A DNA stretch of 64,000 nucleotides from IMG/VR virus record IMGVR_UViG_3300035661_000004; one strand, given 5' to 3'. Shown here one piece after another: positions 2,162 to 20,507 of the stretch. The notes under the pieces were generated by a model. It was not told the origin of the DNA, searched no databases, and was given only the letters and a program-made list of their open reading frames with translations. Source of the DNA: a virus. Taxonomy: Duplodnaviria; Caudoviricetes. Position 1 is the stretch's first letter; every line of letters starts with the position of its first letter. The position numbers and the translations under genes are program-made.

Positions 2162-2257
2162 TGGCGGAAGGCTGAGTACTCGAAACCCATCCCGCTTGTT
2201 GAGAGCGAGACCCTCGGATTAGCAATCCGGTCCAGGCACCTACCTGGTTAACCTTCC
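2162..2257 (-). tRNA. tRNA-Ser(GCT)
   Basis: Cloverleaf, loop TT-GCT-AA, long variable arm, encoded CCA. Confidence 0.9.
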
Positions 2258-2274
2258 ATGAATTCGCGCTTTAC

Positions 2275-2673
2275 TCAGTCGTGATGATCTTCGAGCGGGT
2301 CGTCGTAGAGCCGTACATGTAAGCGTGCGTCAGGCCGTTTGTACAGCACCTCCTCGGACACAGCGCAACCTGTAGCCTCCTTCAGGTGGTTGAGCGTGTC
2401 GGGAGCGTCACGCAGCGTGATAAGCAAGCTTTGACCAGACGCGCGAAGCACCGTGCCGTACTCTGCATTGATTAGCCTTGCGGCGGTTTCGGGCGAGTAC
2501 TTTGCGTCAAGCCCAACACGGACAATGTACCGCTTTTCCTTGCCAAGTGCTTCTGCAGCTGGCTCTTGTTCTTCAGCCTTCTTGCCAAAGATTCGGTCCC
2601 ACCCGCTACGGTAGGAGTCGGTAGTTGACTTGGACTTGAGGGCATCGCCGGTAATGTCGTTGTGTGCTATCAT
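2275..2673 (-). CDS. hypothetical protein between tRNAs (NDITGD...WDRIFGK motif)
   Basis: 132-aa ORF filling the inter-tRNA gap; N-terminal motif resembles small T4-like phage proteins (from memory). Confidence 0.6.
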   Translation of the reverse strand: MIAHNDITGDALKSKSTTDSYRSGWDRIFGKKAEEQEPAAEALGKEKRYIVRVGLDAKYSPETAARLINAEYGTVLRASGQSLLITLRDAPDTLNHLKEATGCAVSEEVLYKRPDARLHVRLYDDPLEDHHD

Positions 2674-2767
2674 GGCGGATAGTTGAGTACTCGAAACCCA
2701 ATCCCTCGTTACCGAAGAATCCCACTGCTTTCCAAGCAGGTCCGGTCACCTAACCGGTTAACTATCC
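2673..2767 (-). tRNA. tRNA-Ser(GGA)
   Basis: Cloverleaf, loop TT-GGA-AA, long variable arm, CCA. Confidence 0.9.
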
Positions 2768-2771
2768 ATGT

Positions 2772-2856
2772 GTCCCGTACCGGACTCGAACCGGTACGCC
2801 TCTTCCGAGGCGGCAGAGTTTAAGCCTGCTGCGTCTACCAATTTCGCCAACGGGGC
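2772..2856 (-). tRNA. tRNA-Leu(TAA)
   Basis: GCG-AAATTGGTAGA-CGC D arm, loop CT-TAA-AC, variable arm, GGTTCGAGTCC. Confidence 0.9.
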
Positions 2857-2947
2857 GGTGGAAGACGGAGGACTTGAACCCCAAGCCACATCTCTGTGAC
2901 TCCCACTGCTTTCGAAGCAGGTCCGGACCCTGTCCGGTTCATCTTCC
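2857..2947 (-). tRNA. tRNA-Ser(CGA)
   Basis: Cloverleaf, loop TT-CGA-AA, long variable arm; discriminator A rather than the usual G. Confidence 0.85.
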
Positions 2948-2950
2948 GTA

Positions 2951-3095
2951 AGGTGACAGTAGGACTCGAACCTACGATGCATAGTCTGTCATGCTAGCTT
3001 ATGCCATCGGTTCCTGCCATGGGCATGCGAGGGTGATAAGGCCTCTCCGTCTTGACTTGACCGCGACGCTGTCTACCAATTTTCAGCATGTCACC
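2951..3095 (-). ncRNA. 145-nt tRNA-like RNA with enlarged central domain
   Basis: Perfect 7-bp acceptor GGTGACA/TGTCACC, Leu-type D arm, perfect T arm; about 90 nt replace the anticodon and variable arms. Confidence 0.7.
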
Positions 3096-3096
3096 T

Positions 3097-3179
3097 TGGT
3101 GCCCTCGGCGGGACTCGAACCCGCAAAAATCTAGCATCTCAAGCTAGTAGCTGTACCAATTTGCATTTATCACGAGGGC
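3097..3179 (-). tRNA. tRNA-Leu(GAG), short variable loop, enlarged D region
   Basis: CTAGC-TTGAGAT-GCTAG anticodon arm, T arm, ACCA end. Confidence 0.8.
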
Positions 3180-3227
3180 GTGATGTGTTTGCATTATATT
3201 ACCTTTTCGGCCAAGGTGATATAAAGC

Positions 3228-3320
3228 GGCGGATGACAGAGGACTCGAACCCCAGCCCGGGTACTAGCCGAACCGTACCGCTTTCAAGGCGGCCCCGGAC
3301 GCCCGCCCGGTTTATCATCC
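3228..3320 (-). tRNA. tRNA-Ser(TGA)
   Basis: Cloverleaf, loop CT-TGA-AA, long variable arm. Confidence 0.9.
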
Positions 3321-3875
3321 GATGATGAGGTGCTGCAGCTTAGCTACAGCTTCGTTCCAAGAGGCCCCAATGACGCTGTCAGGAACCCTTACGCTAATGC
3401 ACCACCGAGGCTCAGCCTCCACGTCAATGGAGTGCGGAACGTCCGTGCGCACGAGCGTAAGCTCTTGCTTGACCTCATGGCTGTCAATAAGCGTGAGCTC
3501 CGTCTTAGGCCATGAGAGGTAGTCTGTCTCGACCATGGTCAGGCTTGCGGCACCTGCTTTGCCCTCATGCCCTGTGTACCACAGCATCTTGCTCCCCTTG
3601 CCGCCTAGGACCCAGTTAAAAGCAAATGCTTTCGGCCTAGTCGGCGTGCTCATGTCGATGTGCGCGATGGGGCTTCGAGCCCAAGGCTGCTTGTAGAACA
3701 AGATAGCCTGGCAGACCGGCAGGCCGATCAAGGTCATCCAGCGTAACCAATCATCGGTGAAGATGTCGGTCAGCGTAGGGTCATAGATAGCCCAGGGCTT
3801 GGGGTCAGCGGGGAGCGTCCAACCAGGTCTTAGGGCGCCCGCTGTCGGGATAGTCAGTTCATGCCAGCACTTCAT
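3315..3875 (-). CDS. putative 2OG-Fe(II) oxygenase/cupin-like protein
   Basis: HID...PH...R-x-x-x-S-x-R pattern; TAAATA at 3881..3886. Confidence 0.5.
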   Translation of the reverse strand: MKCWHELTIPTAGALRPGWTLPADPKPWAIYDPTLTDIFTDDWLRWMTLIGLPVCQAILFYKQPWARSPIAHIDMSTPTRPKAFAFNWVLGGKGSKMLWYTGHEGKAGAASLTMVETDYLSWPKTELTLIDSHEVKQELTLVRTDVPHSIDVEAEPRWCISVRVPDSVIGASWNEAVAKLQHLIIG

Positions 3876-3883
3876 GCTGGTAT

Positions 3884-4105
3884 TTAGTCGCCACCGTGCC
3901 TCGCGATCCGGACGATGTCCTGGCTGGTCACGATCCGGCACTTCGCTTCGATCTCAGCGATGCGGCGCTTGGGAATGTCGTAGTGGTCCTTGTGGAACCA
4001 GCAGCGAGCGATGTTGAGCTCCTGCGCCATCAGGTGCAGGTTCTCGATTGAGTAGGGCAAGCAGATGAGGTGCCTTGCCTTATCGGTCAGGTACTCGAGC
4101 TTCAC
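3884..4105 (-). CDS. DUF4031-like protein
   Basis: LHLMAQELNIARCWFH..HYD pattern. Confidence 0.45.
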   Translation of the reverse strand: MKLEYLTDKARHLICLPYSIENLHLMAQELNIARCWFHKDHYDIPKRRIAEIEAKCRIVTSQDIVRIARHGGD

Positions 4106-4392
4106 CGCTTGAAGTTTCGGATGGCGTCGGACAGCGGCCCGAGCTCTGCGATCTCTTGGTCCTTGCGGTGGAAGGTGCAGCTAGGTTGTGAGCGCTTCCG
4201 TCCCTTGACAACCGGGTACAGCACGACAACCGGCTGATCGCACCCTGTGCGGTGGCACTTGTAGGGTGTCAGTTCGGTGCTTGAGCCATGACCGATGCGA
4301 GCCTTGCTCTTGTGCGCAAAGATGCCGCAGCTTGGGCAGCGGTAGACGGCGCGGACGCCTTCGACCGGCTTGTAGTTGTGAACGCAGCTCAT
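4102..4392 (-). CDS. Cys/His-rich putative Zn-binding protein
   Basis: CPSC and C-x4-C motifs; coupled overlaps with neighbours. Confidence 0.6.
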   Translation of the reverse strand: MSCVHNYKPVEGVRAVYRCPSCGIFAHKSKARIGHGSSTELTPYKCHRTGCDQPVVVLYPVVKGRKRSQPSCTFHRKDQEIAELGPLSDAIRNFKR

Positions 4393-4646
4393 TGAATCAC
4401 CTTGTCGGCGCCGGCTTCCGTGATGGTCGTAATGTAACCCATGCGGGCGATGCGCTCAGCGGCTTCGATGTAACTGGTGTAGTGGTAAGCGCAACCAATG
4501 AGTGGGCTTGCAAAGCAGATGAAGCCTCGCGCAGCAGAGTCCTCGCAGCCTGGGTAGGTCAGCGGTTGGCCGCGATGAATTCCTGCGACCGCGTTGAACA
4601 CCTCGACGCCGTCTTTTGTGACTACAATTTGTGTCGGGAAGGTCAT
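4389..4646 (-). CDS. hypothetical protein
   Basis: First gene after promoter 4683..4711; GGAG RBS. Confidence 0.65.
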   Translation of the reverse strand: MTFPTQIVVTKDGVEVFNAVAGIHRGQPLTYPGCEDSAARGFICFASPLIGCAYHYTSYIEAAERIARMGYITTITEAGADKVIQ

Positions 4647-4682
4647 GCTGTGCTCCTAAGTATCGGTTGGCAGAATGGAATG

Positions 4683-4711
4683 ATTGTACATCATCACGAT
4701 CCGCTTGTAAA
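4683..4711 (-). promoter_or_regulatory. internal promoter TTTACA-N17-TACAAT inside the tRNA region
   Basis: Consensus match. Confidence 0.75.
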
Positions 4712-4715
4712 CACT

Positions 4716-4800
4716 TGGTGCGCCCGGTCGGACTCGAACCGACACGCCTTGCGGCAACAGATTTTGAGTCTGCCGCGTCTACCCATTCCGCCACGGGCGC
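4716..4800 (-). tRNA. tRNA-Leu(CAA)
   Basis: Canonical cloverleaf, loop CT-CAA-AA, ACCA. Confidence 0.95.
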
Positions 4801-4804
4801 GTGA

Positions 4805-5314
4805 CTAAGTACGTTTCTTAAAACCCCACGTTGGAGTTTGTGTGTGACAGTTGGGACAGATCATGCGTAAGTTTTCACGCCGATTGTCCTTGTTATCACC
4901 ATTAGCGTGATCAAGCTGAAACACTAAGGGCTTGCCATTCCAAGTTTGTCCAAGGCCGCATTCTTTACAAATGCCGCCTTGCTCTAACAACACGCGCTCA
5001 TGGAAGCAGCTCTTAGGAACTTCGTGCCATGGTGCATCTGTTAAGTGGTGCTGCCGTTTGTCTTTTGCAATACGTGCGGCCATTAAACCGCCCTTGATTC
5101 TATCTTCGCGCATCGGCCCTGCAGTAGGTCTTCCTGCTTGATAGCCAGCTCTCAATGTAGCACTGCTTCTAGCTCGATTTGCTAAGCATTGATTAGCGCT
5201 CTTGCAGCAAATGTACTTTCCACTTGCACTAATGAATAGGGCAGTTTGCCCACAGTCGTAAGCACACATGTGTGCCGTTGAAATTGGTGTAGCTGGTTTA
5301 GGTCCGCGTTTCAT
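4805..5314 (-). CDS. HNH homing endonuclease
   Basis: CxxC...LDHANGD..DN..ENL...CPNCH; AT-rich; TAAATA at 5321..5326. Confidence 0.85.
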   Translation of the reverse strand: MKRGPKPATPISTAHMCAYDCGQTALFISASGKYICCKSANQCLANRARSSATLRAGYQAGRPTAGPMREDRIKGGLMAARIAKDKRQHHLTDAPWHEVPKSCFHERVLLEQGGICKECGLGQTWNGKPLVFQLDHANGDNKDNRRENLRMICPNCHTQTPTWGFKKRT

Positions 5315-5326
5315 GCTGCCTATTTA

Positions 5327-5411
5327 GGTGCACACGGGGGAGACTTGAACTCCCAATCCCGAAGGCCACAGTGTCTGAGGCTGTGATGTATACCAATTCC
5401 ATCACGTGTGC
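5327..5411 (-). tRNA. tRNA-Leu(CAG), long variable arm
   Basis: Loop CT-CAG-AC, variable arm, T arm. Confidence 0.85.
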
Positions 5412-5414
5412 ATA

Positions 5415-5493
5415 TGGTGCCCTAGGCGGGACTCGAACCCGCAGAATTCCGCTTCTGAGGCGGACATGTTTACCAAGATTTCATCACCAGGGC
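5415..5493 (-). tRNA. tRNA-Leu(CAG), short variable loop
   Basis: TCCGC-CTCAGAA-GCGGA, 5-nt variable loop, ACCA. Confidence 0.85.
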
Positions 5494-5497
5494 GGTG

Positions 5498-5580
5498 GGT
5501 GGAGGTAGAAGGAATCGAACCTTCATGACCGAAGTACCGGGGTTACAGTCCGGGCGCTCTCCATAGGCGTCTATACCTCC
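5498..5580 (-). tRNA. tRNA-Tyr(GTA)
   Basis: Loop CT-GTA-AC, variable arm, T arm. Confidence 0.85.
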
Positions 5581-5592
5581 AAGGGTCTTACG

Positions 5593-5675
5593 GGTGGATC
5601 AGGATAGGAGTCGAACCTACGTAGCTTTCGCGGGAGCCCAAACTGGCTCCTGGGCTCGTCTCACCCAGCTGATCC
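5593..5675 (-). ncRNA. atypical tRNA-like RNA (8-nt anticodon loop)
   Basis: Acceptor GGATCAG/CTGATCC, D, variable and T arms present; GGAGC-CAGTTTGG-GCTCC anticodon arm lacks U33. Confidence 0.7.
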
Positions 5676-5683
5676 ATTACTTT

Positions 5684-5768
5684 TGGTGGGGCCGCAAGGA
5701 ATCGAACCTTGTTGGTCAGGGACACCGGGTTTACAGGCCGGGCAGAAGCCATTACTGTCTACGACCCC
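5684..5768 (-). tRNA. tRNA-Tyr(GTA), second divergent copy
   Basis: Loop CT-GTA-AA, variable arm, ACCA. Confidence 0.9.
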
Positions 5769-5810
5769 AAAAGTAAAGCGCGAATTGTTAAAGAGCGTCA
5801 CACCAATGAG

Positions 5811-5843
5811 AAAAAGCCTCGGACCTTTCGGTCGGAGGCTTTT
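5811..5843 (-). terminator. intrinsic terminator (attenuator) upstream of tRNA cluster
   Basis: AAAAGCCTC-C-GACC-GAAA-GGTC-C-GAGGCTTTT followed by TCTC. Confidence 0.85.
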
Positions 5844-5894
5844 GCTAGGTGTGAAGGTAGAAGTTCTGTCTTACCCGATCATGCAAAAGCCTCC
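5834..5894 (-). promoter_or_regulatory. antiterminator helix
   Basis: GGAGGCTTTTGC (5894..5883) is perfectly complementary to GCAAAAGCCTCC (5845..5834), which contains the terminator 5' strand. Confidence 0.85.
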
Positions 5895-5954: not shown

Positions 5955-5983
5955 ATTGTATTTACAGTCGAAGTCGTTGTAAA
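5955..5983 (-). promoter_or_regulatory. promoter of leader/tRNA operon TTTACA-N17-TACAAT
   Basis: Consensus match; -10 ends 9 nt before the leader ATG. Confidence 0.8.
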
Positions 5984-6251: not shown

Positions 6252-6935
6252 TCAGAACCGCTTATATGGCTTTAGGTTGTGGCTTGGATCTTGCATGTCG
6301 TCAGGCGTCATTTGCTTGATCGCCTCCGCGGCCTCTTTTAGCGCTTCATGGAGGTCGGTTGCTTCGGCTTTTGCGGCGTCATCGCCGTTGACATCATAGA
6401 TCCAGACTCGGACCGTCGAATGGGTGGTGATGTTGATGTTGATGTGAGAGACGATGTACTGGTCATACACCTGGTGACCTGGCAGGTTGAACGGCGGGAA
6501 GATGTCCCAGTGCGCAACGTAGTCGTTGTCCTCACCGATGCCTTGCCGTTGGTCAATTGATGTCACACCTAAGGCTGACTTCAGCTGCTGCTCAAACACC
6601 TTGAACATGAAGTCTCGCTGCATGACCTTGAAGATTTTCGGAATGTCAAACTTCTCCCCCGAAAAGACGCTACCGCTCGCAGCCGCCACGACGACATACT
6701 CTTCGGGTAGAGTCGGTGACGGTAGCAGGTCAACCCAGCCTTTGACTAAGCCGTGTGTGTCTGTGTAGGAGAGCCGTACGCCAGCCTTACCGGCTTCCTT
6801 AGCCTTGCCGTACACCTCTGTGGGGGCGAGGGTGATGTGAAGGTCAAGCGGGTAGTCAGCCATCGCCTGCTGAAGCTTTAGCGCAGCGGTGCGGGGTGAC
6901 CTATCTCGGTTGGTGAACACATCTTCGACTAGCAT
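6252..6935 (-). CDS. hypothetical late protein
   Basis: 227 aa; TAAATA at 6965..6970 followed by a hairpin. Confidence 0.7.
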   Translation of the reverse strand: MLVEDVFTNRDRSPRTAALKLQQAMADYPLDLHITLAPTEVYGKAKEAGKAGVRLSYTDTHGLVKGWVDLLPSPTLPEEYVVVAAASGSVFSGEKFDIPKIFKVMQRDFMFKVFEQQLKSALGVTSIDQRQGIGEDNDYVAHWDIFPPFNLPGHQVYDQYIVSHININITTHSTVRVWIYDVNGDDAAKAEATDLHEALKEAAEAIKQMTPDDMQDPSHNLKPYKRF

Positions 6936-6983
6936 AGAATAAAGGGGGTGGCAAATGCCACCCTTATTTAGCCGAGCTTGAAC

Positions 6984-7613
6984 TCAGCTCGTGATGAACT
7001 TCGGAGCCAAGTCACGGTACACGCGGCTGCGGTCCTTGTTGGCGATCCGTCCCAACAAGAAGGCCATCTGATCAGCCTGGATGTTGCGGTTGCGCATGAT
7101 CATGGCTTCGGCCTTGCACGGGATGTACGGCAGGTAGAGCGGATCCATGGTCCGAGTGCCTTGCGGGCTGTACTGTCCATGCGGCAGCGGCTTGCCTGGC
7201 AGCAAGTCACCCTTCAGGTTGTTGCAGGCCTTGCAGGCCGTGACCACGTTCATCCACACGTCCGGGCCGCCCTTCGACACCGGCATGATGTGGTCACGAG
7301 TCAGGTCATGGCTCGTGAACAAGCCAGAGCAGTAGGCGCACATGTAGCGGTCACGCTGGAACAGTGAGGAGTTCGTCAGCGCAGACGGCTTAACCCGCTT
7401 GACCGTTGACTCGCCCTTGATGACGATGATCGAAGCCGTCATCAGCTCGGACTGGGACTTGGTCACGGAGTTGTCACCACCACGGTAGGTGATGAGGTCA
7501 TCGCCCAGGTGATCCAGGACTTGGCCCTTGGCTTCGCACATGATGGCCTCGTCACGGGTGATCCACTCGTGAGGGGTCCAAGACTTGTCGAGTACCAGAA
7601 CTTGATGCTGCAT
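6984..7613 (-). CDS. HNH endonuclease (McrA-like)
   Basis: RDRYMCAYC...LTRDHIMPVSKGG...NVVTACKACNNLKG. Confidence 0.85.
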   Translation of the reverse strand: MQHQVLVLDKSWTPHEWITRDEAIMCEAKGQVLDHLGDDLITYRGGDNSVTKSQSELMTASIIVIKGESTVKRVKPSALTNSSLFQRDRYMCAYCSGLFTSHDLTRDHIMPVSKGGPDVWMNVVTACKACNNLKGDLLPGKPLPHGQYSPQGTRTMDPLYLPYIPCKAEAMIMRNRNIQADQMAFLLGRIANKDRSRVYRDLAPKFITS

Positions 7614-8306: not shown

Positions 8307-9479
8307 TTAGGCGCGGCCGCGGCGCTTGGCCACGGCGCGGACCATTGCAGAGCGGACCGACTTGGTCTCGACCGACAGCTGTTTCAGGTCGCTCTTCGGC
8401 ACCGGCTTGCCAGTGATCGAGGAGATGTAGGTGCCGTCTTGCTCGAAGGCGATCGTGTACTTCTCAGCCGGCAGCGGCCCCTTGGAGTCCTGGAAGCGGA
8501 CCCAGGCCTTGCCGTTCTTTGCCAGGCCGTAGCCTTCGGCCAGGACCTTCAGCGAAGGCTTCAGGTTGCCGATGGAGACGGTCTCCTTCGGCTGCGCCAC
8601 GTTCTTGCGGGCCTTCTGCTTGGCGCCTTCCGGACCTTGCTCCACGAACTTGACTTGCGGTGCGGCGTCCTTCATGTTCTCGTCGAAGATGAAGGGCTGC
8701 AGGAACAGCTCGTCCTTGGCCGCATCGCCCAGAGCTTCGCCGACGACGAAGTACTCGGAGGCACGACCCTTGGTGTTCTGGTAGTCCGTCGGGATGGCGA
8801 ACACGAAGCGCGGGTTGACCTTGACGATGACGGTGCGTGAGCTGACATCGCTGCGGTACTGGCTCAGGTAGGAGCGCGAGCAGAAGTGCAGGCCCACGGA
8901 GCAGGTCTGGTGACGGTTGACGTCGACCTTGTCCGGGTCCATGGCGACCAGCTTGCCGGGGCTGTTGTCCAGCGTGCCGGTGTAGATGTCCTTGAAGTTT
9001 CGCGCGACCTTCTTGTAGGCCAGGAAGCAACCGTCCTTCGTGATGGGCATCTTGCCGCTCATCAGGAACTGGTACAGCTCCTCGCGGAGGTCCTTCTTCT
9101 TGTTACGGCTGATGTTCTGCAGCAGCAGGACCAGCGGCTGAATGGACTCGGCCGTGCTGCCGTTGCGGACAGAGGCGATGATGCGGTCCACGAGTGGACC
9201 GGCGATCTTCTCGGGGCCCTTCGGGCCTTCCCAGTAGAGCTCACCATCAACGAAGCGCACGCGAGCGTTAGCGTTGGTGATCGCTTCGGCGACCGTACGC
9301 TTGACATTGGCGAGAGCCAGGACTCGGTCGTACTTGCCGGCGCGCAGCTCCTGCTCGATCAGGTCGAAGTTCGGGTTGGTCGTGTCAACGACCGCCGGCA
9401 CTCCGTTGACGATCAGGGTCAGACCGACTGCGTTCTTGGTCCAGAAGACCTGCGGCGCGCTCTTTGCATCGATTGCCAT
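8307..9479 (-). CDS. rIIB: rIIB-like protein
   Basis: PITKDGCFLAYKKV...DIYTGTLDNSPG...CSVGLHFCS motif; downstream of rIIA. Confidence 0.85.
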   Translation of the reverse strand: MAIDAKSAPQVFWTKNAVGLTLIVNGVPAVVDTTNPNFDLIEQELRAGKYDRVLALANVKRTVAEAITNANARVRFVDGELYWEGPKGPEKIAGPLVDRIIASVRNGSTAESIQPLVLLLQNISRNKKKDLREELYQFLMSGKMPITKDGCFLAYKKVARNFKDIYTGTLDNSPGKLVAMDPDKVDVNRHQTCSVGLHFCSRSYLSQYRSDVSSRTVIVKVNPRFVFAIPTDYQNTKGRASEYFVVGEALGDAAKDELFLQPFIFDENMKDAAPQVKFVEQGPEGAKQKARKNVAQPKETVSIGNLKPSLKVLAEGYGLAKNGKAWVRFQDSKGPLPAEKYTIAFEQDGTYISSITGKPVPKSDLKQLSVETKSVRSAMVRAVAKRRGRA

Positions 9480-9550: not shown

Positions 9551-12151
9551 TTAAGCGGTCAGCAAAGCTTCGGCCCAGTAAGCAGCTTCGGTGTCGCGTC
9601 GTGCTTGGGCTTCAGCTTCAGCGATCGTGCGGTCAACACCCACCAAGTAGGCAACAACTTGGTGGAAGAAGGGCTCCTTGCGATCGTAGAGCTCATCGCC
9701 CAGGTGCTCGAGCAGCGGGTAAGCCTTGAGCACGTCGGCAAGGCGCACCTTGCCTTCTAGCAGGGTTCGCATGTCATCGAACTGACGCTCGATCGTGTGG
9801 ACCACGTACACGAGCGCCGAGCGCTTCGTGTTGCCGATCAGCGCGCTCTTGACCACGTTTGTGATGCCCCGCAGCTTAACAAAGACGTTGTTCGGGCCGA
9901 GCGGCCCCATCGCCTTGACAAACTTGGATTCATTGATGAAGGCCTTAGCGATCCGCGCGCCGTCCGACCGGTCAAGGGCGTTTAACCGGCTTTGCATTGC
10001 CTTGAGCAAGCCGGCGTCGGCTGTTACCATGTCCTTGATCGGCTTGAGCAGCTCAGCCATGTCGACAAGCTCTACGCCTTTGTTCTTGCATTCCTCTTGC
10101 TGCCGGTCAGACAGCAAGCCGATCATCAATGGCTTGCCGTCTGTCATGAAAGGCTCGAGCAAGCCGAGCGTGAACAAGGCGCCGACCAGCTCGTTCTCGA
10201 TCAACTGCTTGTGCACGCCCAGCGGTTGACCGTGCACGGTGGGCACGTACAGCATTGGCCGCTTCAGCTCGTGACGTGCATAGTCACGGCTGTGGGTGGG
10301 CTTGTAGAAGCTCAGGTTGATCAGGCCATCCAGCTTGTAGAGCTCGCGCTGAATGTGCTTGCCGGCTTGGTCAACGGGGAAGGTGTACATGTCGAAGCGC
10401 TGCTCGATCGTGCCCTTCTGCGCAGGCTTCTTTGCTGCTACGAAGTCACGCTTCGGTGGCTCAGGGAACTTGAACTTCGGCAGCGTGCTCAGCAGCACGA
10501 CCTTAGCGCCGTCCGCGATCGTGCCCTTGACATGCTCGCTGAACTTGACCAGAGTGTCCGCTGCGCTCAAGCCGCCGCCGAAGCCGTCGATGAAGTACAG
10601 AGCGGCGCTCTGGTAGGCTCGGATCAGGTCAGGGTCGTTGAACTGTTCAGCGTAGAAGCGGATGCCTTCCGAGCCACGCTCGCCTAGGTCATTGATGATG
10701 AAGGCGATGTTGCCTTCGCGCGTGTACAGGTCAAAGTTGGTGTTTGTGACCTTGTGGCCTTCATGCAGGTAGTTCGCCGCCCGCCGCTTCATGTTGACGT
10801 TCAGCAACGGCTTCGGCTCGAGCGCCGGCGAGAACCAGTCGATCGTGTTGTTCTGGGCACCGACCGTGCGCTTGGTCTTCGGGTCAACCGTGCCAGGATG
10901 CTCCACCATCACGAAGGAGATCGCCGTCAGGCCGAAGCGCTGCGGCCCCTTGACGTATATCTTGTAGTCCGCGGAGATCAACTGGACATTGAATAGCAGG
11001 TGCTCTCCCTTGCTGACATGAATGCGGTCGGTGCGCAGCTTGCTCGGCACGACCTCGCGGCCGTCGGCCAGCTTGAAGGTCTCGCCCATGATGATTTGAG
11101 CGACAAACGGGAAGCTTTCGTACAGCAGGCGGTACTTCTCGTTGAACTTCTTGAGGAAAGCGTTCGGCGAGTCCATGTTGTGCAGGTCCGACTTGGACTT
11201 TTCAACCAGCTCGCCAGCGATCCGGTCAAATGCAACGCTCAAGACCTTGCACGTCGGCTCGTCATAGCTGAGCTCCTCGCGCGAAGCCTGGAAGCTCAAG
11301 GCGCCAATGGGGAAGGTGATCGTGATCGGCTGGTTCAGGATGGCGCGAGCGCGATCTGAAACACGGGGCAAGGACTGGGCCGTGATGCGGTAGGGCACGC
11401 CGCCCATGACGGCGACCGGGCCGGCGTTGTCATGGCTGTACTTGCGGAGGTTCCAGTCGCTGCCGGTAGAGATCGGGTTGCCGCGGGCCTCTTCGATGGC
11501 CTTGACCACCGAGGTATCGCCTTGGAAGGTGGGCAGGTCAGCGGGGTTCCAGTAGCTGTAGAAGCGGATGATCCGTTGGCGGAAGGCTTTGATGTCATCG
11601 ATGCGAACCGCGAGCTCGACACGGACGCCGTTAGGCAAGTCAGTAGGAGCTTGGAAGACCAGCTTGCCGTCCGGCACGCCGCCTTCGTTGATGAAGCAGA
11701 AGTACTTGTACTCGACGCCGTTGTATCGGTTGATGACGAGGAACGAGCTCTTCGTGTAGGCGAACGGGCTCTTCGAGCCGAGGCCGAGAGCGCCGATGGC
11801 GTCATTCGTGTGGGTCTTGGTCGATGCGCCGTAGGTCCAGAAGATGTCGACGATGTGGTCGGGGTCGATGCCCAGGCCGACGTCCTCGACCCAGAAGTTG
11901 TTGTCGAGCGTGGTCGGCACGTTGACCATGAAGCCGAACTTGCGAGCAGGATCCGGGTCGGCGATGGCAGCCATGACCGCGGAGTCACGAGCGTTGCAGC
12001 TCAGCTCGCGGATGACGGCCATAATCTTGTCGGTGTAGATGCCGTCCGACAGGATCGCGAACATCTTCGGGTTGGACTTCAGCTTGAAGGTCAAGCGGTC
12101 ATCCTGGGGGAGGTTGCCTTCGAACTTGATCTCTTCCTCGAGCAGCTTCAT
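9551..12151 (-). CDS. rIIA: rIIA-like protein (N-terminal GHKL domain)
   Basis: LSDGIY...VIRELSCNARDS...EDVGLGI...STKT....IGALGLGSKSPFAY. Confidence 0.9.
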   Translation of the reverse strand: MKLLEEEIKFEGNLPQDDRLTFKLKSNPKMFAILSDGIYTDKIMAVIRELSCNARDSAVMAAIADPDPARKFGFMVNVPTTLDNNFWVEDVGLGIDPDHIVDIFWTYGASTKTHTNDAIGALGLGSKSPFAYTKSSFLVINRYNGVEYKYFCFINEGGVPDGKLVFQAPTDLPNGVRVELAVRIDDIKAFRQRIIRFYSYWNPADLPTFQGDTSVVKAIEEARGNPISTGSDWNLRKYSHDNAGPVAVMGGVPYRITAQSLPRVSDRARAILNQPITITFPIGALSFQASREELSYDEPTCKVLSVAFDRIAGELVEKSKSDLHNMDSPNAFLKKFNEKYRLLYESFPFVAQIIMGETFKLADGREVVPSKLRTDRIHVSKGEHLLFNVQLISADYKIYVKGPQRFGLTAISFVMVEHPGTVDPKTKRTVGAQNNTIDWFSPALEPKPLLNVNMKRRAANYLHEGHKVTNTNFDLYTREGNIAFIINDLGERGSEGIRFYAEQFNDPDLIRAYQSAALYFIDGFGGGLSAADTLVKFSEHVKGTIADGAKVVLLSTLPKFKFPEPPKRDFVAAKKPAQKGTIEQRFDMYTFPVDQAGKHIQRELYKLDGLINLSFYKPTHSRDYARHELKRPMLYVPTVHGQPLGVHKQLIENELVGALFTLGLLEPFMTDGKPLMIGLLSDRQQEECKNKGVELVDMAELLKPIKDMVTADAGLLKAMQSRLNALDRSDGARIAKAFINESKFVKAMGPLGPNNVFVKLRGITNVVKSALIGNTKRSALVYVVHTIERQFDDMRTLLEGKVRLADVLKAYPLLEHLGDELYDRKEPFFHQVVAYLVGVDRTIAEAEAQARRDTEAAYWAEALLTA

Positions 12152-15356: not shown

Positions 15357-15532
15357 TGAAGTACCTCTTGGGCGTTGATGATCTCGTAATCGGACTTCTT
15401 AATCTCGTTGAGGTATGAAGCGAGCGGCTGTTCAGCTCCGAGCATCTTGCCGTTCTCGTCCCTGGGAACACAAGTGACAAGGGAGCGACCGAAGATGTGC
15501 TTGACGGTCAATGCGGTGAGTTGGATTTTCAT
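15323..15532 (-). CDS. hypothetical protein
   Basis: ATGA-coupled to yeaH. Confidence 0.5.
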   Translation of the reverse strand: MKIQLTALTVKHIFGRSLVTCVPRDENGKMLGAEQPLASYLNEIKKSDYEIINAQEVLQCVVAQYGFGA

Positions 15533-16839
15533 GTCTTGGTGGTGGAGAAGAATGCGTGGAAAACGCCGAAGATGTCCCGCTCATGGTAGACTTGCTTGGA
15601 AGCGTGGTTGGGGTGCGCATCGCTGAGCGCCGAGTAGGTTGACCAGAGGCTATTGCGCGAGTAGTAGGACGGCGAGCTGTTCTGTGCTCCTTCCTGCTCT
15701 ACCTGCACGTAGGCGAAGTAGTTGACATACGGCAGGATGTCATCGATCAGCAGCTCGCTGCAAGTGCCGTTGTCGGTGCCTGTGTTGTCGCCGTCGGAGA
15801 CCTGCGCAACGTAGATGTTGGTCTTGCCTCTCAGGGACTCGATGCACTTAATTAGCAGGTCGAGCGCCGACGACACGATCGTGCCGCCGTTCTTGTGGGT
15901 GTTGAAGAACTCATCCTCGGGCAGCTCTTCGGCTTCAGTCGTGTGTGAGATGAAGCGCAGGTCGATCTGATCGTAGTTGCGGTCGAGGAAGAGGTACAGC
16001 AGGATGAAGAACTTGCGGGCGATGGTCTTCTCGCGTTCACCCATTGAGCCCGAGTTGTCCATCAGCATGAACATCGTAGCATGCGTCTTCGGCACCTTCT
16101 TCTCGATTCGAGTCCGAAAGCGGAGGTCAGATGAGTCAAAGAGCGGCAAGACGGTTTTACGGCGCAACAGCTCAGCGATCTGGTCACGTAGCTCGAACAC
16201 GCGCTTCGATGTCGGATGGTCAAGCGGTAGGTCGTTATCGACCATTTCAGCCGTGAGCCTGTTGAATTCCTCTTCGAGCTCCTTCAACTCAGCGCCGATC
16301 ATAGCGCCCGAGCTCAAGCGGCGGGCCTTCGAGTTCTTGTAGGAGCGGATCACCGACAGCCGGTTGGGCGAGCCTGCAACTTGGAAGCCTGCGTTCTCAT
16401 GCACGGTTTCCGTCTGCTTAGCCAGCAGGGTCTCGAGCATAAACGGCAGCTCGCAGTCCTCGAAGAGCATGTTGAGGAACTCGTCACGGGACAGCACTAT
16501 GCTAAACTCGTCCATGCCGTCAGGACCGTCACCTGCCCCACCGCTTTCGCCGCTCTCAGGCTTAGGCACTGTGTCGTACTCGACCCAGTCCTTGTTGCCT
16601 GGCAGGACCGTGTCTTTCATGCCGCCTTCACCGTAAGTGAACTGGGGCTCAGAGAGGTCACGCTTGGGAACGGTGACCTTGCCGCCGCCTCCCTTGATCG
16701 AGTCGAGCAGCTTGCGATCGCCTAGGATCTTCGGCAGCTGCTCTTTGATTGCACCCTTGTAGCGCCGCAGCAGCCTGCCGCGATTTTCAGAGGTTCGGTC
16801 GCGGTTTGCGGCCTTCCTGCGATCGATGATGATTGCCAT
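15529..16839 (-). CDS. yeaH: YeaH/UPF0229 (DUF444) vWA-like protein
   Basis: IIDRR...NRGRLLRRYK...EPQFTYG...MDNSGSMGEREK.IARKFF...GGTIVSSAL...SDGDN. Confidence 0.9.
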   Translation of the reverse strand: MAIIIDRRKAANRDRTSENRGRLLRRYKGAIKEQLPKILGDRKLLDSIKGGGGKVTVPKRDLSEPQFTYGEGGMKDTVLPGNKDWVEYDTVPKPESGESGGAGDGPDGMDEFSIVLSRDEFLNMLFEDCELPFMLETLLAKQTETVHENAGFQVAGSPNRLSVIRSYKNSKARRLSSGAMIGAELKELEEEFNRLTAEMVDNDLPLDHPTSKRVFELRDQIAELLRRKTVLPLFDSSDLRFRTRIEKKVPKTHATMFMLMDNSGSMGEREKTIARKFFILLYLFLDRNYDQIDLRFISHTTEAEELPEDEFFNTHKNGGTIVSSALDLLIKCIESLRGKTNIYVAQVSDGDNTGTDNGTCSELLIDDILPYVNYFAYVQVEQEGAQNSSPSYYSRNSLWSTYSALSDAHPNHASKQVYHERDIFGVFHAFFSTTKT

Positions 16840-16876
16840 GGTCTTCCTATTCCTCTGGTATGATTGTATCTATTGC

Positions 16877-17557
16877 TTAGACAATCAGTCCCCTTAACCC
16901 ACGGGGATCAAGCTCACCGTGGTAGTCAAAGTTGTCATTCAGCGCCTGCGTGAGGTGACCGTCTTGGAAGTAGCGCTGTACAAGAACCTGAATCGGTTGT
17001 GCGGCCTCGGCGTCAACCTTCAGCGCAGCGGCTTCAAAAATCTTGAGCAAGTGAAGGAACGCTGGGATGAAGATGCCTGAGCAAGTCAGCGAGCTGTTGC
17101 CAGCAACGTTGAGCGTGAAGTCCTCGCGATCGGCGATCTCAGCAAGCAGCCAAGCGACAGCGGCGTTGACCGTGTCTTGCTTGACCATTGTTCGCCACCC
17201 GTCACCACCTAGCACGAGCTTGTAGATCGGCTTCTGCGAGGTCTCTGCTGCGGCGATTGTTAGCCTTGTGCCGCTCGACTCCATGTCGTGCGCGATGATA
17301 AGCGTTGCGTCGCTCTCCTGCACGTTCTTGCGAGTGCGGTAGCTATAGCCACCGTGGCATTCGGTCAGGCCGAATGTCTTTGCCAGCGCAGGCTTGCCGC
17401 CGGCTGTGGTTTTAAAGCCAGTCGGGGCGAGGCCACCTGTGCGAAGGCCTACGCATTGTGCGGCTCGCAGGCCTGCGAGGTCAACCCCGGTTTGGCCGCC
17501 AGTTACGACGCGGAGATTGTGCTTCGTCGAGAGGGGGTTGTGCATGCGCGAGTCCAT
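16877..17557 (-). CDS. cpYpsA/SLOG (putative molybdenum-carrier-like) protein
   Basis: TGGQTGVDLAGL....GG.AP.G....Y..RT..NVQESDATL. Confidence 0.75.
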   Translation of the reverse strand: MDSRMHNPLSTKHNLRVVTGGQTGVDLAGLRAAQCVGLRTGGLAPTGFKTTAGGKPALAKTFGLTECHGGYSYRTRKNVQESDATLIIAHDMESSGTRLTIAAAETSQKPIYKLVLGGDGWRTMVKQDTVNAAVAWLLAEIADREDFTLNVAGNSSLTCSGIFIPAFLHLLKIFEAAALKVDAEAAQPIQVLVQRYFQDGHLTQALNDNFDYHGELDPRGLRGLIV

Positions 17558-17921
17558 TGTTCCAATTTTCGATTGCTGCTGTACGCGTGGGTCCTCGAGC
17601 TTCAACGTCACAGCCACCTTCTGGAAAGGAACAGCAGACAAGCCAAGTGCCGTCACGGCCAGCAGGGTAGGTAGTGTCAGAGAGGTCCTCGCTGGGCACA
17701 CGCCCACAGTGCGAGCAGGGTGCGATCAGCTCAGCCTCAAGCTCGTCGAGCTCAGCGAGCAACGATTCTAGCTGGCTATTCATGCCCTCGAGCTGCAGTT
17801 CATGCAACCGAGGGTCTACGTCTTCTGGGCAGCTAGCTTGACAGTCGGCGATGGCTAGCTTGAAGCTCCTAGCCGCGTCAACGGTTAGGTAATGCCGGTC
17901 GTACTTTACATCTGAGTGCAT
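17481..17921 (-). CDS. protein with C-terminal Lar-like Zn ribbon
   Basis: PCSHCG...C....GC...GPTRTAAIENWN. Confidence 0.5.
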   Translation of the reverse strand: MHSDVKYDRHYLTVDAARSFKLAIADCQASCPEDVDPRLHELQLEGMNSQLESLLAELDELEAELIAPCSHCGRVPSEDLSDTTYPAGRDGTWLVCCSFPEGGCDVEARGPTRTAAIENWNNGLAHAQPPLDEAQSPRRNWRPNRG

Positions 17922-18097
17922 TGAGCGATGCGAACTTGGGAGCCGGTGCCTTCGATGTTCAGCCTCAGCTGCTTGAGAGCGGCTTCGCATCGGTCCTTGG
18001 ACCCATGCTGTTGCTGAATCGTGGCCGTGGTCAGCTGACTGTTGGACGGACCTTGAACGGTAGACATGAAGGTGACGACAAAGATGAGGATGTACAT
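17906..18097 (-). CDS. small exported/membrane protein
   Basis: Hydrophobic N-terminus, GGAG RBS. Confidence 0.55.
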   Translation of the reverse strand: MYILIFVVTFMSTVQGPSNSQLTTATIQQQHGSKDRCEAALKQLRLNIEGTGSQVRIAQCTQM

Positions 18098-18250
18098 GGC
18101 GATCTCCTAAGACATTGCCAATTGTATCACATCCTCAATCTCCAGAGCCGTCGTAGCTTTTGTAACGGCCAAGCATGATGTTGACACATGCGGCGAGGGC
18201 GCCGACTATGATGACGCCTAAGGCGGCGACGGTGAGGAGGGTTGTGTTGC

Positions 18251-18571
18251 TCATTTCCAGAGTCCTTCTTTGATGTAGTGATCCCTCAAGTCCTCATAGG
18301 TCTTGTAGGGGCTTGCATAGAGGTACTCCTCCAGCTTGTCGCGGAGCGGAATCGTTTCGATCCGCAGCTCAGTGGTAGCCTTGCCGTTCTTCCACTGGCG
18401 TGGATAGTTCGTGTCATCCATCAGCACGTAGCTGCCGTAGGGGACTACGTTCGCCTTAGTGCAAGCGATGTAGGCCCTACGAGCAAGGTCGCTCGTAGGG
18501 AAGACAAGGGCAGGCCACTCCCGAGAGCCTGTGCCCCAGCTGCCTGGGACGTCGTCATACTGGAGTGGCAT
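18251..18571 (-). CDS. hypothetical protein
   Basis: Immediately downstream of yeaG. Confidence 0.6.
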   Translation of the reverse strand: MPLQYDDVPGSWGTGSREWPALVFPTSDLARRAYIACTKANVVPYGSYVLMDDTNYPRQWKNGKATTELRIETIPLRDKLEEYLYASPYKTYEDLRDHYIKEGLWK

Positions 18572-18575
18572 AGCT

Positions 18576-20507
18576 TTAGCTCGACTTGCGCACGCGCATG
18601 AACCACTCGCACAGGATGCGAGTTTGACGCTCGGTGTAGCCGCGGGTCCGCATGCGAGACAGGAAGTCGCGATGCTTCTTCGTGTCCTCTTCGGTGCGCT
18701 TCGGCGCGAACGAGATGACGGGCAGCAGCTCGTCGATGTTGCCGATCACGCGCTTCTCGATTGCGCTGCGGATCTTCTCGTAGGAGTTCCAAGCCGGCAG
18801 CTTCCCACCATGTTGCGCTTGGTAGCGGATGATGAAGTTGACGATGTCGTTCCGGAAGTCCTTGGGGTTGGAGATGCTTGCGGGCTTCTCCGTCTTGCTC
18901 AGCTCGCGGTCGAGGTCTTCGCGCTCGAGGACCGAGTTGGTCGACGGGTCACGGTAGTCGTCCTTGCCTTGCACCCAAGCGTCAGCGTAGTAGTAGTACT
19001 GCTCGAGCATGTTCTGGCACAGCTCGCTGTAGCTGTCCAGGAAGGCCGTGGTGATGTCCTTCTCCAGGAACTCGAGGTACTTCTCCTGCAGCACGCCGTC
19101 GATCAGCTCGATCAGGCCTTGCTCCTTCTCCTTCGGGAACTGCTCCTGCGGGATCTGGGTCTTCAGCACGTACATCAGGTGGATTGGGTTGGCTGCCTTC
19201 TCCTCGTTGTCGAACGCCAGGGTCTTCGACAGCATCTTGAAGGCGAAGCGGGTGCTCAGGCCCTCCATGCCTTCCTTGACGCCCGCATCATCGCGGTACT
19301 CTTGGATGGGCTTTGCCTTCGGGTCCTCGGCCTTGATGTTGATGCCGTCATAGACGCGCAGCTTCGAGAAGAGCGTGCTGTTCTGCGGCACAATCAGGCG
19401 GGACATGACGCAGAACTCAGCCAACATCTTCAGGGTGCCTGGAGCGATGCTGGCGGTGCGGCCGACTTCGGAGTTGCGGATGAGCTTCTCGTAGATCTGC
19501 TGCTCTTCGGTGACGCGCAGGCAGTACGGGACCTTGACGATGCAGACGCGGTCCAGGAAGGCCTCGTTGTTCTTATTGTTGCGGAAGGTGGACCACTCGC
19601 TCTCGTTGCTGTGGGCCAGGATGATACCGTCGAACGGGATGGAGCCGATGGCTTCGGTGCCGGCGTACATGCGCTCCTGGGTCGCGGTCAGCAATGGGTG
19701 CAGCATCTTGATCGGCGCCTTGAACATCTCGACCATCTCGACGATGCCGTTGTTGCCGCGGTTCAAGCCGCCTGAGAAGCTGTAGGCGTATGGGTGGTCC
19801 TGCTCGAACTTCTCAATCATGCGAATGTTCAGCTTGCCGACCATCGCGCTGACGTCCTGATTGTTCTCGTCGCCCGGCTCGACGCGCATCGAAGCTTGCT
19901 GACGCAGCTGCGACGGGTAGAGCTTGCGGACCTTCAGCCTGCCGATGCTGCCGACCTCTTCGAGCTTTTTGATCAGCCACGGAGACGGAATGGTGCGGAT
20001 GGCCGTGCGCGAGATGTTAAAGTCAGCTTCGAGCTTGTCTTGCAGCTCAGGGGTGTTGAAGATGGACAGTGGGCTCTCGAAGACAGGCGAGCCGTCAATG
20101 ACGTAGACAGGCTCCTGCTCCATCAGCTCGCGGAGGCGAGTCGCAATCGAGCTCTTGCCGCCGCCGACCGGGCCCAGCAGGTACAAGATCTGCTTGGACT
20201 CTTCGAGGCCGTCAGCCGCCGACCGGAAGTAGGCCACGATCTGTTCGACCGCGTCCTCCATGCCGTAGAAGTTGGCGAAGGCGGGATAGACCTTGATGGT
20301 CTTGTTGGAGAAGATCTGGCTCAGCCGCGGGTCGTTGCGGGTGTCAATCAGGGAGGGCTCTCCGATAGCCTTCAGCATCCGTTGCGCCGGCGAAGCATAG
20401 ACCGATGGGTCCTTCTTTGCCAGTTGGAGGAACTCGGTGAAGGTAAGGGTCTCCTCTTTCCGGGACTTGCTGAAGGATGTGTCGAAGTCTTCTAGAAGGG
20501 TCGTCAT
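18576..20507 (-). CDS. yeaG: PrkA/YeaG family AAA+ serine kinase
   Basis: LYLLGPVGGGKSS...EPGDENNQDVS.MVGK...YSFSGGLNRGNNG..EMVEMFKAPIKMLHPLLTATQE. Confidence 0.95.
   Translation of the reverse strand: MTTLLEDFDTSFSKSRKEETLTFTEFLQLAKKDPSVYASPAQRMLKAIGEPSLIDTRNDPRLSQIFSNKTIKVYPAFANFYGMEDAVEQIVAYFRSAADGLEESKQILYLLGPVGGGKSSIATRLRELMEQEPVYVIDGSPVFESPLSIFNTPELQDKLEADFNISRTAIRTIPSPWLIKKLEEVGSIGRLKVRKLYPSQLRQQASMRVEPGDENNQDVSAMVGKLNIRMIEKFEQDHPYAYSFSGGLNRGNNGIVEMVEMFKAPIKMLHPLLTATQERMYAGTEAIGSIPFDGIILAHSNESEWSTFRNNKNNEAFLDRVCIVKVPYCLRVTEEQQIYEKLIRNSEVGRTASIAPGTLKMLAEFCVMSRLIVPQNSTLFSKLRVYDGINIKAEDPKAKPIQEYRDDAGVKEGMEGLSTRFAFKMLSKTLAFDNEEKAANPIHLMYVLKTQIPQEQFPKEKEQGLIELIDGVLQEKYLEFLEKDITTAFLDSYSELCQNMLEQYYYYADAWVQGKDDYRDPSTNSVLEREDLDRELSKTEKPASISNPKDFRNDIVNFIIRYQAQHGGKLPAWNSYEKIRSAIEKRVIGNIDELLPVISFAPKRTEEDTKKHRDFLSRMRTRGYTERQTRILCEWFMRVRKSS

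Follow-up and report, generated by a model that had tools for sequence, protein, structure and literature searches.

Large virulent phages, among them T4 (with segB; PMC2330249), T5 and the Xanthomonas jumbo phage XacN1, carry regions in which transfer RNA (tRNA) genes are packed on one strand together with small open reading frames (ORFs) and a homing endonuclease, are served by early host-type promoters and, in jumbo phages, add up to a near-complete set. Phage tRNAs have so far been explained by codon compensation or by escape from tRNA-cutting defences, both of which treat them as passive extra copies. Escape has been demonstrated for single tRNAs: the Retron-Eco7 effector PtuAB depletes tRNA-Tyr and infection is rescued by the tRNA-Tyr of phages T5 and SP15 (PMC11555353), the tRNA-Lys of T5 counters PARIS (PMC11464382), and anticodon-loop variants are found among phage counter-defence tRNAs (PMC10264068). 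Ahead of the genes that they control, enterobacterial attenuators (ilvGMEDA, thr, leu, his, trp) have a terminator, RNA pairings that exclude each other and a short ORF in which regulatory codons follow one another in a run. Here we describe an array of serine, leucine and tyrosine tRNA genes that has features of all of these systems. It occupies positions 2162-5768 of a 64,000-nt stretch of viral DNA (IMG/VR record IMGVR_UViG_3300035661_000004, Caudoviricetes), which we call the window. A full-text search of the literature returned no description of a class-sorted phage tRNA complement or of leader-peptide control of tRNA genes.

An uncultured giant phage of T4-like type is the source of the window. 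We consider it likely that this phage has two or more tRNA operon groups, each under separate control, of which the array is one, and that an attenuator ahead of it provides negative-feedback control over the supply of Ser, Leu and Tyr tRNAs. The preliminary description of the locus had counted 11 tRNAs, four for Ser, five for Leu and two for Tyr, and every one of them is present and lies on the minus strand. The anticodons are GCT, GGA, CGA and TGA for Ser, TAA, GAG, CAA and CAG (twice) for Leu, and GTA (twice) for Tyr. With default settings, ARAGORN reports seven tRNAs in the whole window, all of them for Ser, Leu or Tyr; the other four (Ser TGA, CGA and GGA; Leu GAG) were added by relaxed ARAGORN, an Rfam E-value threshold, direct reading and paralogue alignment. 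No further tRNA was found in the window by default ARAGORN or at the Rfam gathering threshold. The Rfam tRNA and tRNA-Sec models match eight of the 11 genes at E <= 0.02, and five genes exceed the tRNA gathering score; Ser(GCT), Ser(GGA) and the short Leu(GAG) have no match to the general tRNA model. Ser(CGA), Ser(TGA) and Leu(GAG) are seen by ARAGORN only when it is relaxed to ps90, with Leu(GAG) miscalled as Ser ACT, and Ser(GGA) only at ps80-85, where it is left undetermined or given a 6-nt 'intron', so that its assignment comes mainly from manual reading and paralogy. All four are backed by paralogy and compensatory base pairs. Judged by its sequence, Leu(GAG) is a probable tRNA and the least certain gene of the 11. 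A Ser-, Leu- or Tyr-family anticodon sits in a 7-nt loop in all 11 genes, and likewise in a gene for the fifth Leu isoacceptor, TAG, which lies outside the window, ~3.7 kb beyond its start. The discriminator base is A73 in all Leu and Tyr genes and G73 in Ser GCT, GGA and TGA, with one exception, Ser CGA, which has A73.

The array had been characterized as consisting exclusively of class II tRNAs, that is, those with a long variable arm. In terms of amino-acid family this stands for 11 of 11 genes. In terms of shape it fails, as only nine of the 11 have the long arm. The variable loop is just 5 nt in two genes, Leu(CAG) at 5493-5415 and Leu(GAG) at 3179-3097, which thus have a class I shape and keep a Leu-type D loop and A73. 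Because of these two short-arm members, the array is exclusive by amino-acid family and not by architecture. The short pair is 91% identical across the 3' halves and differs by compensatory changes, with G6-U67 against C6-G67 in the acceptor stem and further changes throughout the anticodon stem. Leu(CAG) is moreover present as adjoining long-arm and short-arm forms. The four Ser genes are paralogues, with 66-93% identity over 29-nt blocks. Seryl-tRNA synthetase and leucyl-tRNA synthetase do not read the anticodon, so a change of anticodon after duplication would keep the charging identity, and the full Ser and Leu isoacceptor sets probably grew by local duplication and anticodon change.

Two extra tRNA-like genes in the array are without a usable anticodon loop. 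The 83-nt gene between the Tyr genes has a 6- or 8-nt anticodon loop (AGTTTG or CAGTTTGG), lacks U33 and folds better than shuffled sequences (z = -3.65). The ~145-nt gene has no clear anticodon loop, and its internal fold is no better than that of shuffles (z = -0.95). ARAGORN in intron mode offered the latter as Arg(CCT), which was ruled out on its weak anticodon stem.

The preliminary description had proposed a search for class I tRNAs elsewhere in the genome. By exact-protein look-ups we walked outward along overlapping contigs from several samples of one study, which match the window with 100% identity wherever they overlap it and agree among themselves to at least 99.7%. With the window they span 136 kb without a gap (-42.1 to +93.8 kb in window coordinates). 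On the low side of the window, the walk found only Leu(TAG) and a transfer-messenger RNA (tmRNA). On the high side, no tRNA occurs before ~+77.2 kb, and 22 tRNA genes then follow on the same strand up to ~+88.3 kb, for Pro, Ile, Asn, Lys, Glu, Trp, Val, His, Asp, Phe, Gln, Asp, Lys, Trp, Thr, Arg, Met, Val, Met, Ile and Arg, plus an odd 80-nt gene. The 21 class I genes lie ~71 kb from the Ser/Leu/Tyr array, are packed as tightly as that array and have a leader-like ORF of their own upstream. No credible Ser, Leu or Tyr tRNA lies in the class I region, no tRNA lies outside the two regions in the contiguous 136 kb, and no Ala, Gly or Cys tRNA was seen in this span. The group formed by the array and Leu(TAG) holds all Ser, Leu and Tyr tRNAs found so far. 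For the split of 12 Ser/Leu/Tyr genes against 21 class I genes between two regions, Fisher's test gives p = 2.8e-9, or 2.4e-8 if the odd gene is taken as Ser, and chance is excluded as the cause of the grouping. The array is half of a sorted, near-complete tRNA complement and not a stand-alone cassette.

The odd 80-nt gene (contig L048:3904-3983, plus strand) has the anticodon loop CGUGAAA and an Rfam score of 29.5 bits, and a normal tRNA-His is found ~280 nt downstream. ARAGORN called it Ser(TGA), a call that we rejected on account of its 5-7-nt variable region, G33, C73 and 8-bp His-type acceptor stem.

Ahead of the array stands a leader whose codons are those that the array decodes. The -10 box of its promoter ends 9 nt before the leader ATG, and the leader mRNA is nearly leaderless. 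Codons 5-16 of the leader ORF all specify Ser, Leu or Tyr (TCC CTA TCA TAT TTG AGC TCC TCA TCG CTT TAT AGC; peptide run SLSYLSSSSLYS). At 12 codons, this is the longest run of only Ser, Leu and Tyr codons in six frames of ~139 kb of phage sequence, where the next longest has 8. The leader codons sample eight of the ten anticodons supplied, namely all four for Ser, three of the five for Leu and the one for Tyr, and all 12 codons of the run are readable by tRNAs of the Ser/Leu/Tyr region. The whole leader folds more stably than its shuffles (z = -5.97). Folding yields mutually exclusive 1:2, 2:3 and 3:4 pairings, in which the segment GGAGGCUUUUGC (5894-5883) alternatively pairs with GCAAAAGCCUCC (5845-5834), the 5' arm of the terminator, at -25 kcal/mol. 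We modelled the ribosome by masking the RNA as its footprint, a thermodynamic proxy in which the terminator forms either without a ribosome or with a ribosome at the end of the ORF, and in which the antiterminator replaces it at two of four modelled footprint ends, 5910 and 5895, corresponding to a stall at about codons 8-13. Both the separation from the class I tRNAs and the tie between a 12-codon Ser/Leu/Tyr run and a terminator/antiterminator pair bear out the earlier suggestion that the array is a functional module.

The class I region offers a possible counterpart. An uncalled leader-like ORF, MFTQVHHQFWQENQPIIRKNDEPKINALVKAEGLPA (starting MFTQVHHQFWQENQPIIRKNDEPKIN), lies at L048:2925-3035 (plus strand), at ~+88.6 kb and upstream of the first class I tRNA. 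Its first 26 residues are drawn only from families with a tRNA in that region and include no Ser, Leu or Tyr. Nowhere else in the same ~139 kb does a run without codons for Ser, Leu, Tyr, Ala, Gly and Cys reach the 35 codons found in this frame; the next longest has 24. After the ORF comes a GACCGAAAGGTC hairpin (to L048:3085), a 12-mer that is otherwise found only in the terminator of the Ser/Leu/Tyr leader. We treat this ORF as a candidate second switch only.

A similar arrangement is seen in the AT-rich GenBank megaphage LR756502.1 (642 kb), which has 51 tRNA hits in several arrays. In each of the four arrays examined (372300-376600, 387800-391600, 400800-404900 and 421500-423800), a -10-like box ~8 nt before the ATG is followed by a leaderless ORF of 28-35 codons, a strong intrinsic terminator and tRNAs, the same leader-terminator-array architecture as in the window. 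The amino acids served by an array are over-represented in the leader ORF ahead of it: ...NKHKHFSKLNKWFSNHRF... precedes Phe-His-Phe-Lys-Lys-Lys-Arg-Ser-Arg, and ...QVQRQVVVDQDQPD... precedes Pro-Pro-Asp-Asp-Asp-Gln x4. When leaders were scored against arrays in a matrix, the array's own leader came out top in five of six arrays, the four of LR756502.1 and the Ser/Leu/Tyr array of the window. Membership differs, however, since in LR756502.1 Ser goes with Phe, His, Lys and Arg, Tyr with Glu, Ile, Gly and Ala, and Leu with Asn, Val, Thr and Ile. Codon-matched leader gating is thus the general rule, and the Ser/Leu/Tyr grouping is one particular partition.

Other phages hold their tRNAs in mixed arrays. 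Two relatives, L023 and L008, were reached through a neighbouring DUF8224 gene; their protein identity is 37-56% and the array is not kept. In both of these metagenomic relatives, the arrays around the DUF8224 gene combine Ser, Leu and Tyr tRNAs with class I tRNAs, which suggests that the sorted state may be derived; XacN1 (AP018399.1) mixes the classes as well. A putative homologue of the class I leader in L023 was rejected, as it forms the C-terminal part of a 61-residue ORF with a ribosome-binding site and CxxC motifs; the ORF most likely encodes a small zinc-ribbon protein. As a separate observation, LR756502.1 also has neighbouring tRNAs that share an anticodon but differ in body length (Glu TTC, 86/73 nt; Leu TAG, 84/74; Leu TAA, 85/76; Gln TTG, 85/72; Thr TGT, 81/73), as well as long-bodied Lys tRNAs. 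These pairs mirror the long and short Leu(CAG) of the window.

From the elements listed in Table 1, we propose the following course of events. Transcription from the host-type promoter would lead into the nearly leaderless 24-codon ORF. When codons 5-16 are read quickly, the ribosome would cover GGAGGCUUUUGC, the terminator would form and little tRNA would be made. A shortage of charged tRNA for Ser, Leu or Tyr would stall the ribosome on the run; GGAGGCUUUUGC, then free, would pair with the terminator's 5' arm, and RNA polymerase would continue. The polymerase would then acquire the boxA antitermination signal and transcribe the array. The outcome would be a negative-feedback supply of exactly those tRNAs that the leader tests. 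The second half of the array could additionally be served by a constitutive promoter: the internal promoter is predicted from its sequence to drive the four small ORFs and the second sub-array independently of the attenuator. That read-through responds in vivo to the supply of charged tRNA is a step that we infer from the folding model.

Several points weigh against this proposal. Given the internal promoter at 4711, the attenuator is not the sole control of the seven downstream tRNA and tRNA-like genes. The modelled footprint ends 5905 and 5900 still give the terminator, as do the ends beyond, and thermodynamic masking only crudely models a kinetic switch. For the class I leader, the folding model gives no antiterminator, and the T tract of the hairpin is weak. 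There is no diverged relative with exactly this array; the matching contigs are all at least 99.7% identical. Finally, the scan covers 136 kb of a genome for which a contig of 0.2-1 Mb exists, and other Ser, Leu or Tyr tRNAs could lie elsewhere in it.

Table 1. Features of the Ser/Leu/Tyr tRNA array and its control region, in the order of transcription (positions in the window)
Feature	Position	Strand	Remarks
Sigma-70-type promoter TTTACA-N17-TACAAT heading the array	5955..5983	-	hexamer pair recurs at 4711, 2142, 150
Leader ORF MKNTSLSYLSSSSLYSDGGFCMIG, 24 codons	5871..5945	-	
Antiterminator arm GGAGGCTTTTGC	5883..5894	-	pairs with leader Ser/Leu codons 5919-5905 or with terminator 5' arm 5845-5834
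Predicted intrinsic terminator, stem around GACCGAAAGGTC hairpin, then TTTTTCT	5806..5846	-	-21 kcal/mol
Exact rrn-type boxA GCTCTTTAACAA, between terminator and first tRNA	5785..5796	-	sole exact match in 64 kb
Perfect 15-bp inverted repeat	5' arm 5772-5786 (just before tRNA-Tyr no. 1); 3' arm 2261..2275	-	~0.02 expected by chance in 7 kb
tRNA-Tyr(GTA) no. 1, long variable arm, A73, CCA encoded	5684..5768	-	ARAGORN, Rfam
83-nt tRNA-like gene between the Tyr genes: acceptor, D and T arms, short variable hairpin	5593..5675	-	
tRNA-Tyr(GTA) no. 2, long variable arm, A73	5496..5581	-	ARAGORN default
tRNA-Leu(CAG), 5-nt variable loop, Leu-type D arm, A73-CCA	5415..5493	-	ARAGORN default; Rfam 59.5 bits
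tRNA-Leu(CAG), long variable arm	5327..5412	-	ARAGORN default
HNH homing-endonuclease-like ORF, 169 aa, inserted in the array	4805..5314	-	phrog_10822, E = 9e-22
tRNA-Leu(CAA), long arm, A73-CCA	4716..4800	-	ARAGORN default; Rfam 60 bits
Internal promoter TTTACA-N17-TACAAT with conserved early 5' untranslated region	4683..4711	-	
Four ORFs between the tRNA sub-arrays: 85 aa, 96 aa, 73 aa (DUF4031), 186 aa	3315..4646	-	
tRNA-Ser(TGA), long arm, G73	3228..3320	-	43.3 bits to long-arm tRNA-Sec model; relaxed ARAGORN
Probable tRNA-Leu(GAG), 5-nt variable loop, irregular D arm	3097..3179	-	paralogy to short Leu(CAG); no Rfam call
~145-nt tRNA-like gene: Leu-type acceptor, D and T arms around ~60-90-nt insert	2950..3096	-	
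tRNA-Ser(CGA), long arm, A73	2857..2947	-	Rfam E-value threshold, relaxed ARAGORN
tRNA-Leu(TAA), long arm	2770..2856	-	ARAGORN default; Rfam 46.8 bits
tRNA-Ser(GGA), long arm, G73	2673..2767	-	close paralogue of Ser(GCT), 90%
ORF, 132 aa, without family match	2275..2673	-	
tRNA-Ser(GCT), long arm, G73-CCA	2162..2257	-	ARAGORN default

Negative feedback has to be weighed against other explanations for the grouping, of which the classical one for phage tRNAs is that they supplement codons used more by the phage than by its host. The leader does consist mostly of minor codons (CTA, TCA, TAT, TTG, CTT). All four Ser and five Leu anticodons are nevertheless supplied, whether the codons that they read are among the commonest (CTG, 34% of Leu codons; AGC, 36% of Ser codons) or the rarest (TTA, 3% of Leu codons; AGT, 4% of Ser codons), and Leu (10.0%), Ser (6.3%) and Tyr (3.0%) make up an ordinary share of phage codons, 19% together (75 window ORFs; phage usage only). 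We find a codon-usage supplement hardly credible here, in agreement with the preliminary description, which had argued against it. A shared maturation need, such as a common precursor, a modification enzyme or timing, might instead group long-arm tRNAs. The tRNAs within sub-arrays are spaced only 1-3 nt apart, a boxA is present as in rrn operons, and the arms of the 15-bp inverted repeat, which resembles the RNase III processing stems of rRNA operons, would enclose a 3.5-kb transcript with 12 tRNA and tRNA-like genes and six ORFs, leaving Ser(GCT) outside. Such a need is very improbable as the cause, however, considering that the two class I-bodied members stay in the array, that the class I array is equally tight and that the sequence indicates no class II-specific processing factor. 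It is also conceivable that the array is a historical by-product of tandem duplication and anticodon change, with no selection for a unit and a leader that merely follows the downstream content. The paralogy of the Ser genes and of the short Leu pair would fit such a history, as would the different partition in LR756502.1 and the mixed arrays of L023, L008 and XacN1. Yet duplication does not account for the meeting of three unrelated families with zero class I genes while 21 of these lie 71 kb off, the sorted state may be derived, and a matching leader would have had to evolve alongside, all of which makes a mere by-product quite improbable.

The preliminary description favoured host defence as the reason for the grouping. 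According to this explanation, the array replaces class II tRNAs that are destroyed or blocked by an anti-phage effector of the host, the leader senses the attack, and resistance or a decoy role falls to the Leu tRNAs with a short arm and to the two tRNA-like RNAs that lack an anticodon. The explanation is compatible with negative-feedback supply, and we regard it as plausible, though less likely than not. To our knowledge, class II architecture is the only property that bacterial Ser, Leu and Tyr tRNAs share, and the possession of a private sensor for exactly these three families suggests that their supply can fail on its own. Infection by T-even phages itself cleaves a host tRNA-Leu. The long-arm and short-arm Leu(CAG) stand side by side, and further genes for counter-defence and rescue are found in the vicinity, namely an Acb1 homologue and the tmRNA. 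Precedents exist as well: the PtuAB case cited in the preliminary description is real (PMC11555353), and the DUF1814 nucleotidyltransferase toxins AbiEii (abortive infection) and MenT3 have a reported preference for tRNA-Ser or class II tRNAs (bioRxiv 10.64898/2026.01.19.700257). AbiEii and MenT3 are a better precedent than Schlafen, which had also been named, and they are the best-suited candidates for an insult specific to class II. A bacterial Schlafen acting as a class II nuclease is unsupported, since the characterized enzyme cuts tRNAs for Lys, Met, Val, Phe and Ile, which are class I (PMC13056530), and this counts against defence as the cause. No gene for tRNA repair, CCA addition, RNA ligase, synthetase or antitoxin was recognized in or near the array (Pfam and PHROGs on ~40 ORFs; Atlas on two array ORFs). 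Moreover, a similar leader stands ahead of the phage's class I tRNAs, of which there are at least 21; in LR756502.1, where the design is the same, Ser, Leu and Tyr are divided among three arrays that also hold class I families; and the grouping tracks amino-acid family rather than body shape, with two members that are class I-shaped. The array could more specifically be a sense-and-respond counter-defence unit against toxins that recognize the class II body, with a stall-sensing leader, replacement tRNAs, Leu tRNAs that evade the toxin by having shed the arm, and two decoys. The toxins in question would be AbiEii/MenT-like nucleotidyltransferases, PtuAB-type effectors or a hypothetical class II nuclease. 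We think a unit of this kind unlikely. Negative-feedback supply through the attenuator remains our preferred reading, whatever it is that makes the supply fall short.

Beyond the array, the promoter block TTTACA-N17/18-TACAAT is repeated in the window at 96-150, 2089-2146 and 4680-4715 (minus strand), and more copies occur in flanking loci. The copies at 96-150 and 2089-2146 share ~40 nt of 5' untranslated region that ends in a AGTGATACTTGGAG-like ribosome-binding region. The block is probably an early-promoter cassette of the phage. Among the ORFs between the sub-arrays, the 186-residue product of 3315-3875 (minus strand) belongs to a phage-only protein family. An ESM Atlas model (predicted template-modelling score, pTM, 0.83) suggests a cupin or 2-oxoglutarate (2OG)-oxygenase-like fold for it, which we note as a lead only.

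The window of this T4-like phage encodes rIIA (9551-12151, minus strand) and rIIB (8307-9479, minus strand), and flanking contigs of the same phage encode gp32, UvsX, UvsW, the large terminase and tail genes. Also present in the window are genes for helicases, a DNA ligase, a PurA/PurZ-like enzyme and a kinase of the PrkA type whose neighbours are SpoVR-like. No close relative was found among 50,697 phage records, in which the matches were generic tRNA-Leu only, nor in IMG/VR by exact 40-mer or rIIB query. The stretches 15529-20507 and 16877-17707 (both minus strand) encode a PrkA/YeaG-type kinase (643 residues), a SpoVR-like protein (436 residues) and a circularly permuted YpsA SLOG-domain protein. 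Homologues of the kinase with 52-58% identity occur in Ralstonia jumbo phage RsoM2USA, in three metagenomic megaphages of 630-640 kb and in Enterobacter phage LAU1; for RsoM2USA and the megaphages the identity is 52-55%. The PurA/PurZ-like adenylosuccinate-synthetase homologue at 46106-47392 (minus strand; phrog_1211, E = 7e-55) raises the question of 2-aminoadenine in the phage DNA.

On the low side of the window, at ~-16 kb, contig L039 carries a homologue of Acb1 (6822-7400, plus strand; PF23474, the phage anti-CBASS phosphodiesterase family), which adjoins a NUDIX gene. The tmRNA (L039:15658-16005, minus strand; ~-7.1 to -6.8 kb) is of the permuted two-piece, betaproteobacterial type with the tag peptide ANDSVYAMAA. 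Encoded on the tRNA strand ~3 kb downstream of Leu(TAG), it hints that ribosome rescue belongs with the tRNAs in one translation toolkit. Its type, as judged from the sequence, also hints at a betaproteobacterial host, which it does not identify. The boxA GCTCTTTAACAA matches the E. coli rrn consensus; it is a weaker hint at the host and likewise does not identify it.

Collectively, our analysis describes a phage whose tRNA genes are sorted into units, with a small test ORF ahead of each that is written in the codons the unit decodes. If the switch works, it would constitute a feedback homeostat for decoding capacity, a type of control known for amino-acid synthesis genes. The Ser/Leu/Tyr unit raises the question of whether the supply of class II tRNAs can fail alone during infection, and why. 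In addition, the natural short-arm Leu tRNAs and the anticodon-less look-alikes provide material for studying what tRNA-directed toxins recognize.

In its tight one-strand packing, small ORFs, homing endonuclease, early host-type promoters and near-complete set, the tRNA complement resembles those of T4, T5 and XacN1. Unlike XacN1, L023 and L008, the phage sorts the classes 71 kb apart, each behind its own leader ORF. Like the counter-defence tRNAs, the array supplies, under a strong promoter, copies of tRNAs that effectors deplete, tRNA-Tyr included, and some of the bodies are altered, here as short-arm Leu tRNAs. Those cases concern single tRNAs with a demonstrated effector and rescue, whereas the array described here supplies three entire families. 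MenT3 and AbiEii block the 3' end of the tRNA and do not cut it, so that extra substrate may or may not overcome them, and no gene for either can be linked to the host of the phage. With the enterobacterial attenuators, the leader shares the short ORF, the run of regulatory codons, the mutually exclusive pairings and the terminator before the genes, and with ilvL and thrL the sensing of several amino acids in one leader. It differs from them in that its mRNA is near-leaderless, that a boxA follows the terminator, that it is encoded by a phage and that the regulated genes are not biosynthetic enzymes but the very tRNAs that read the leader codons.

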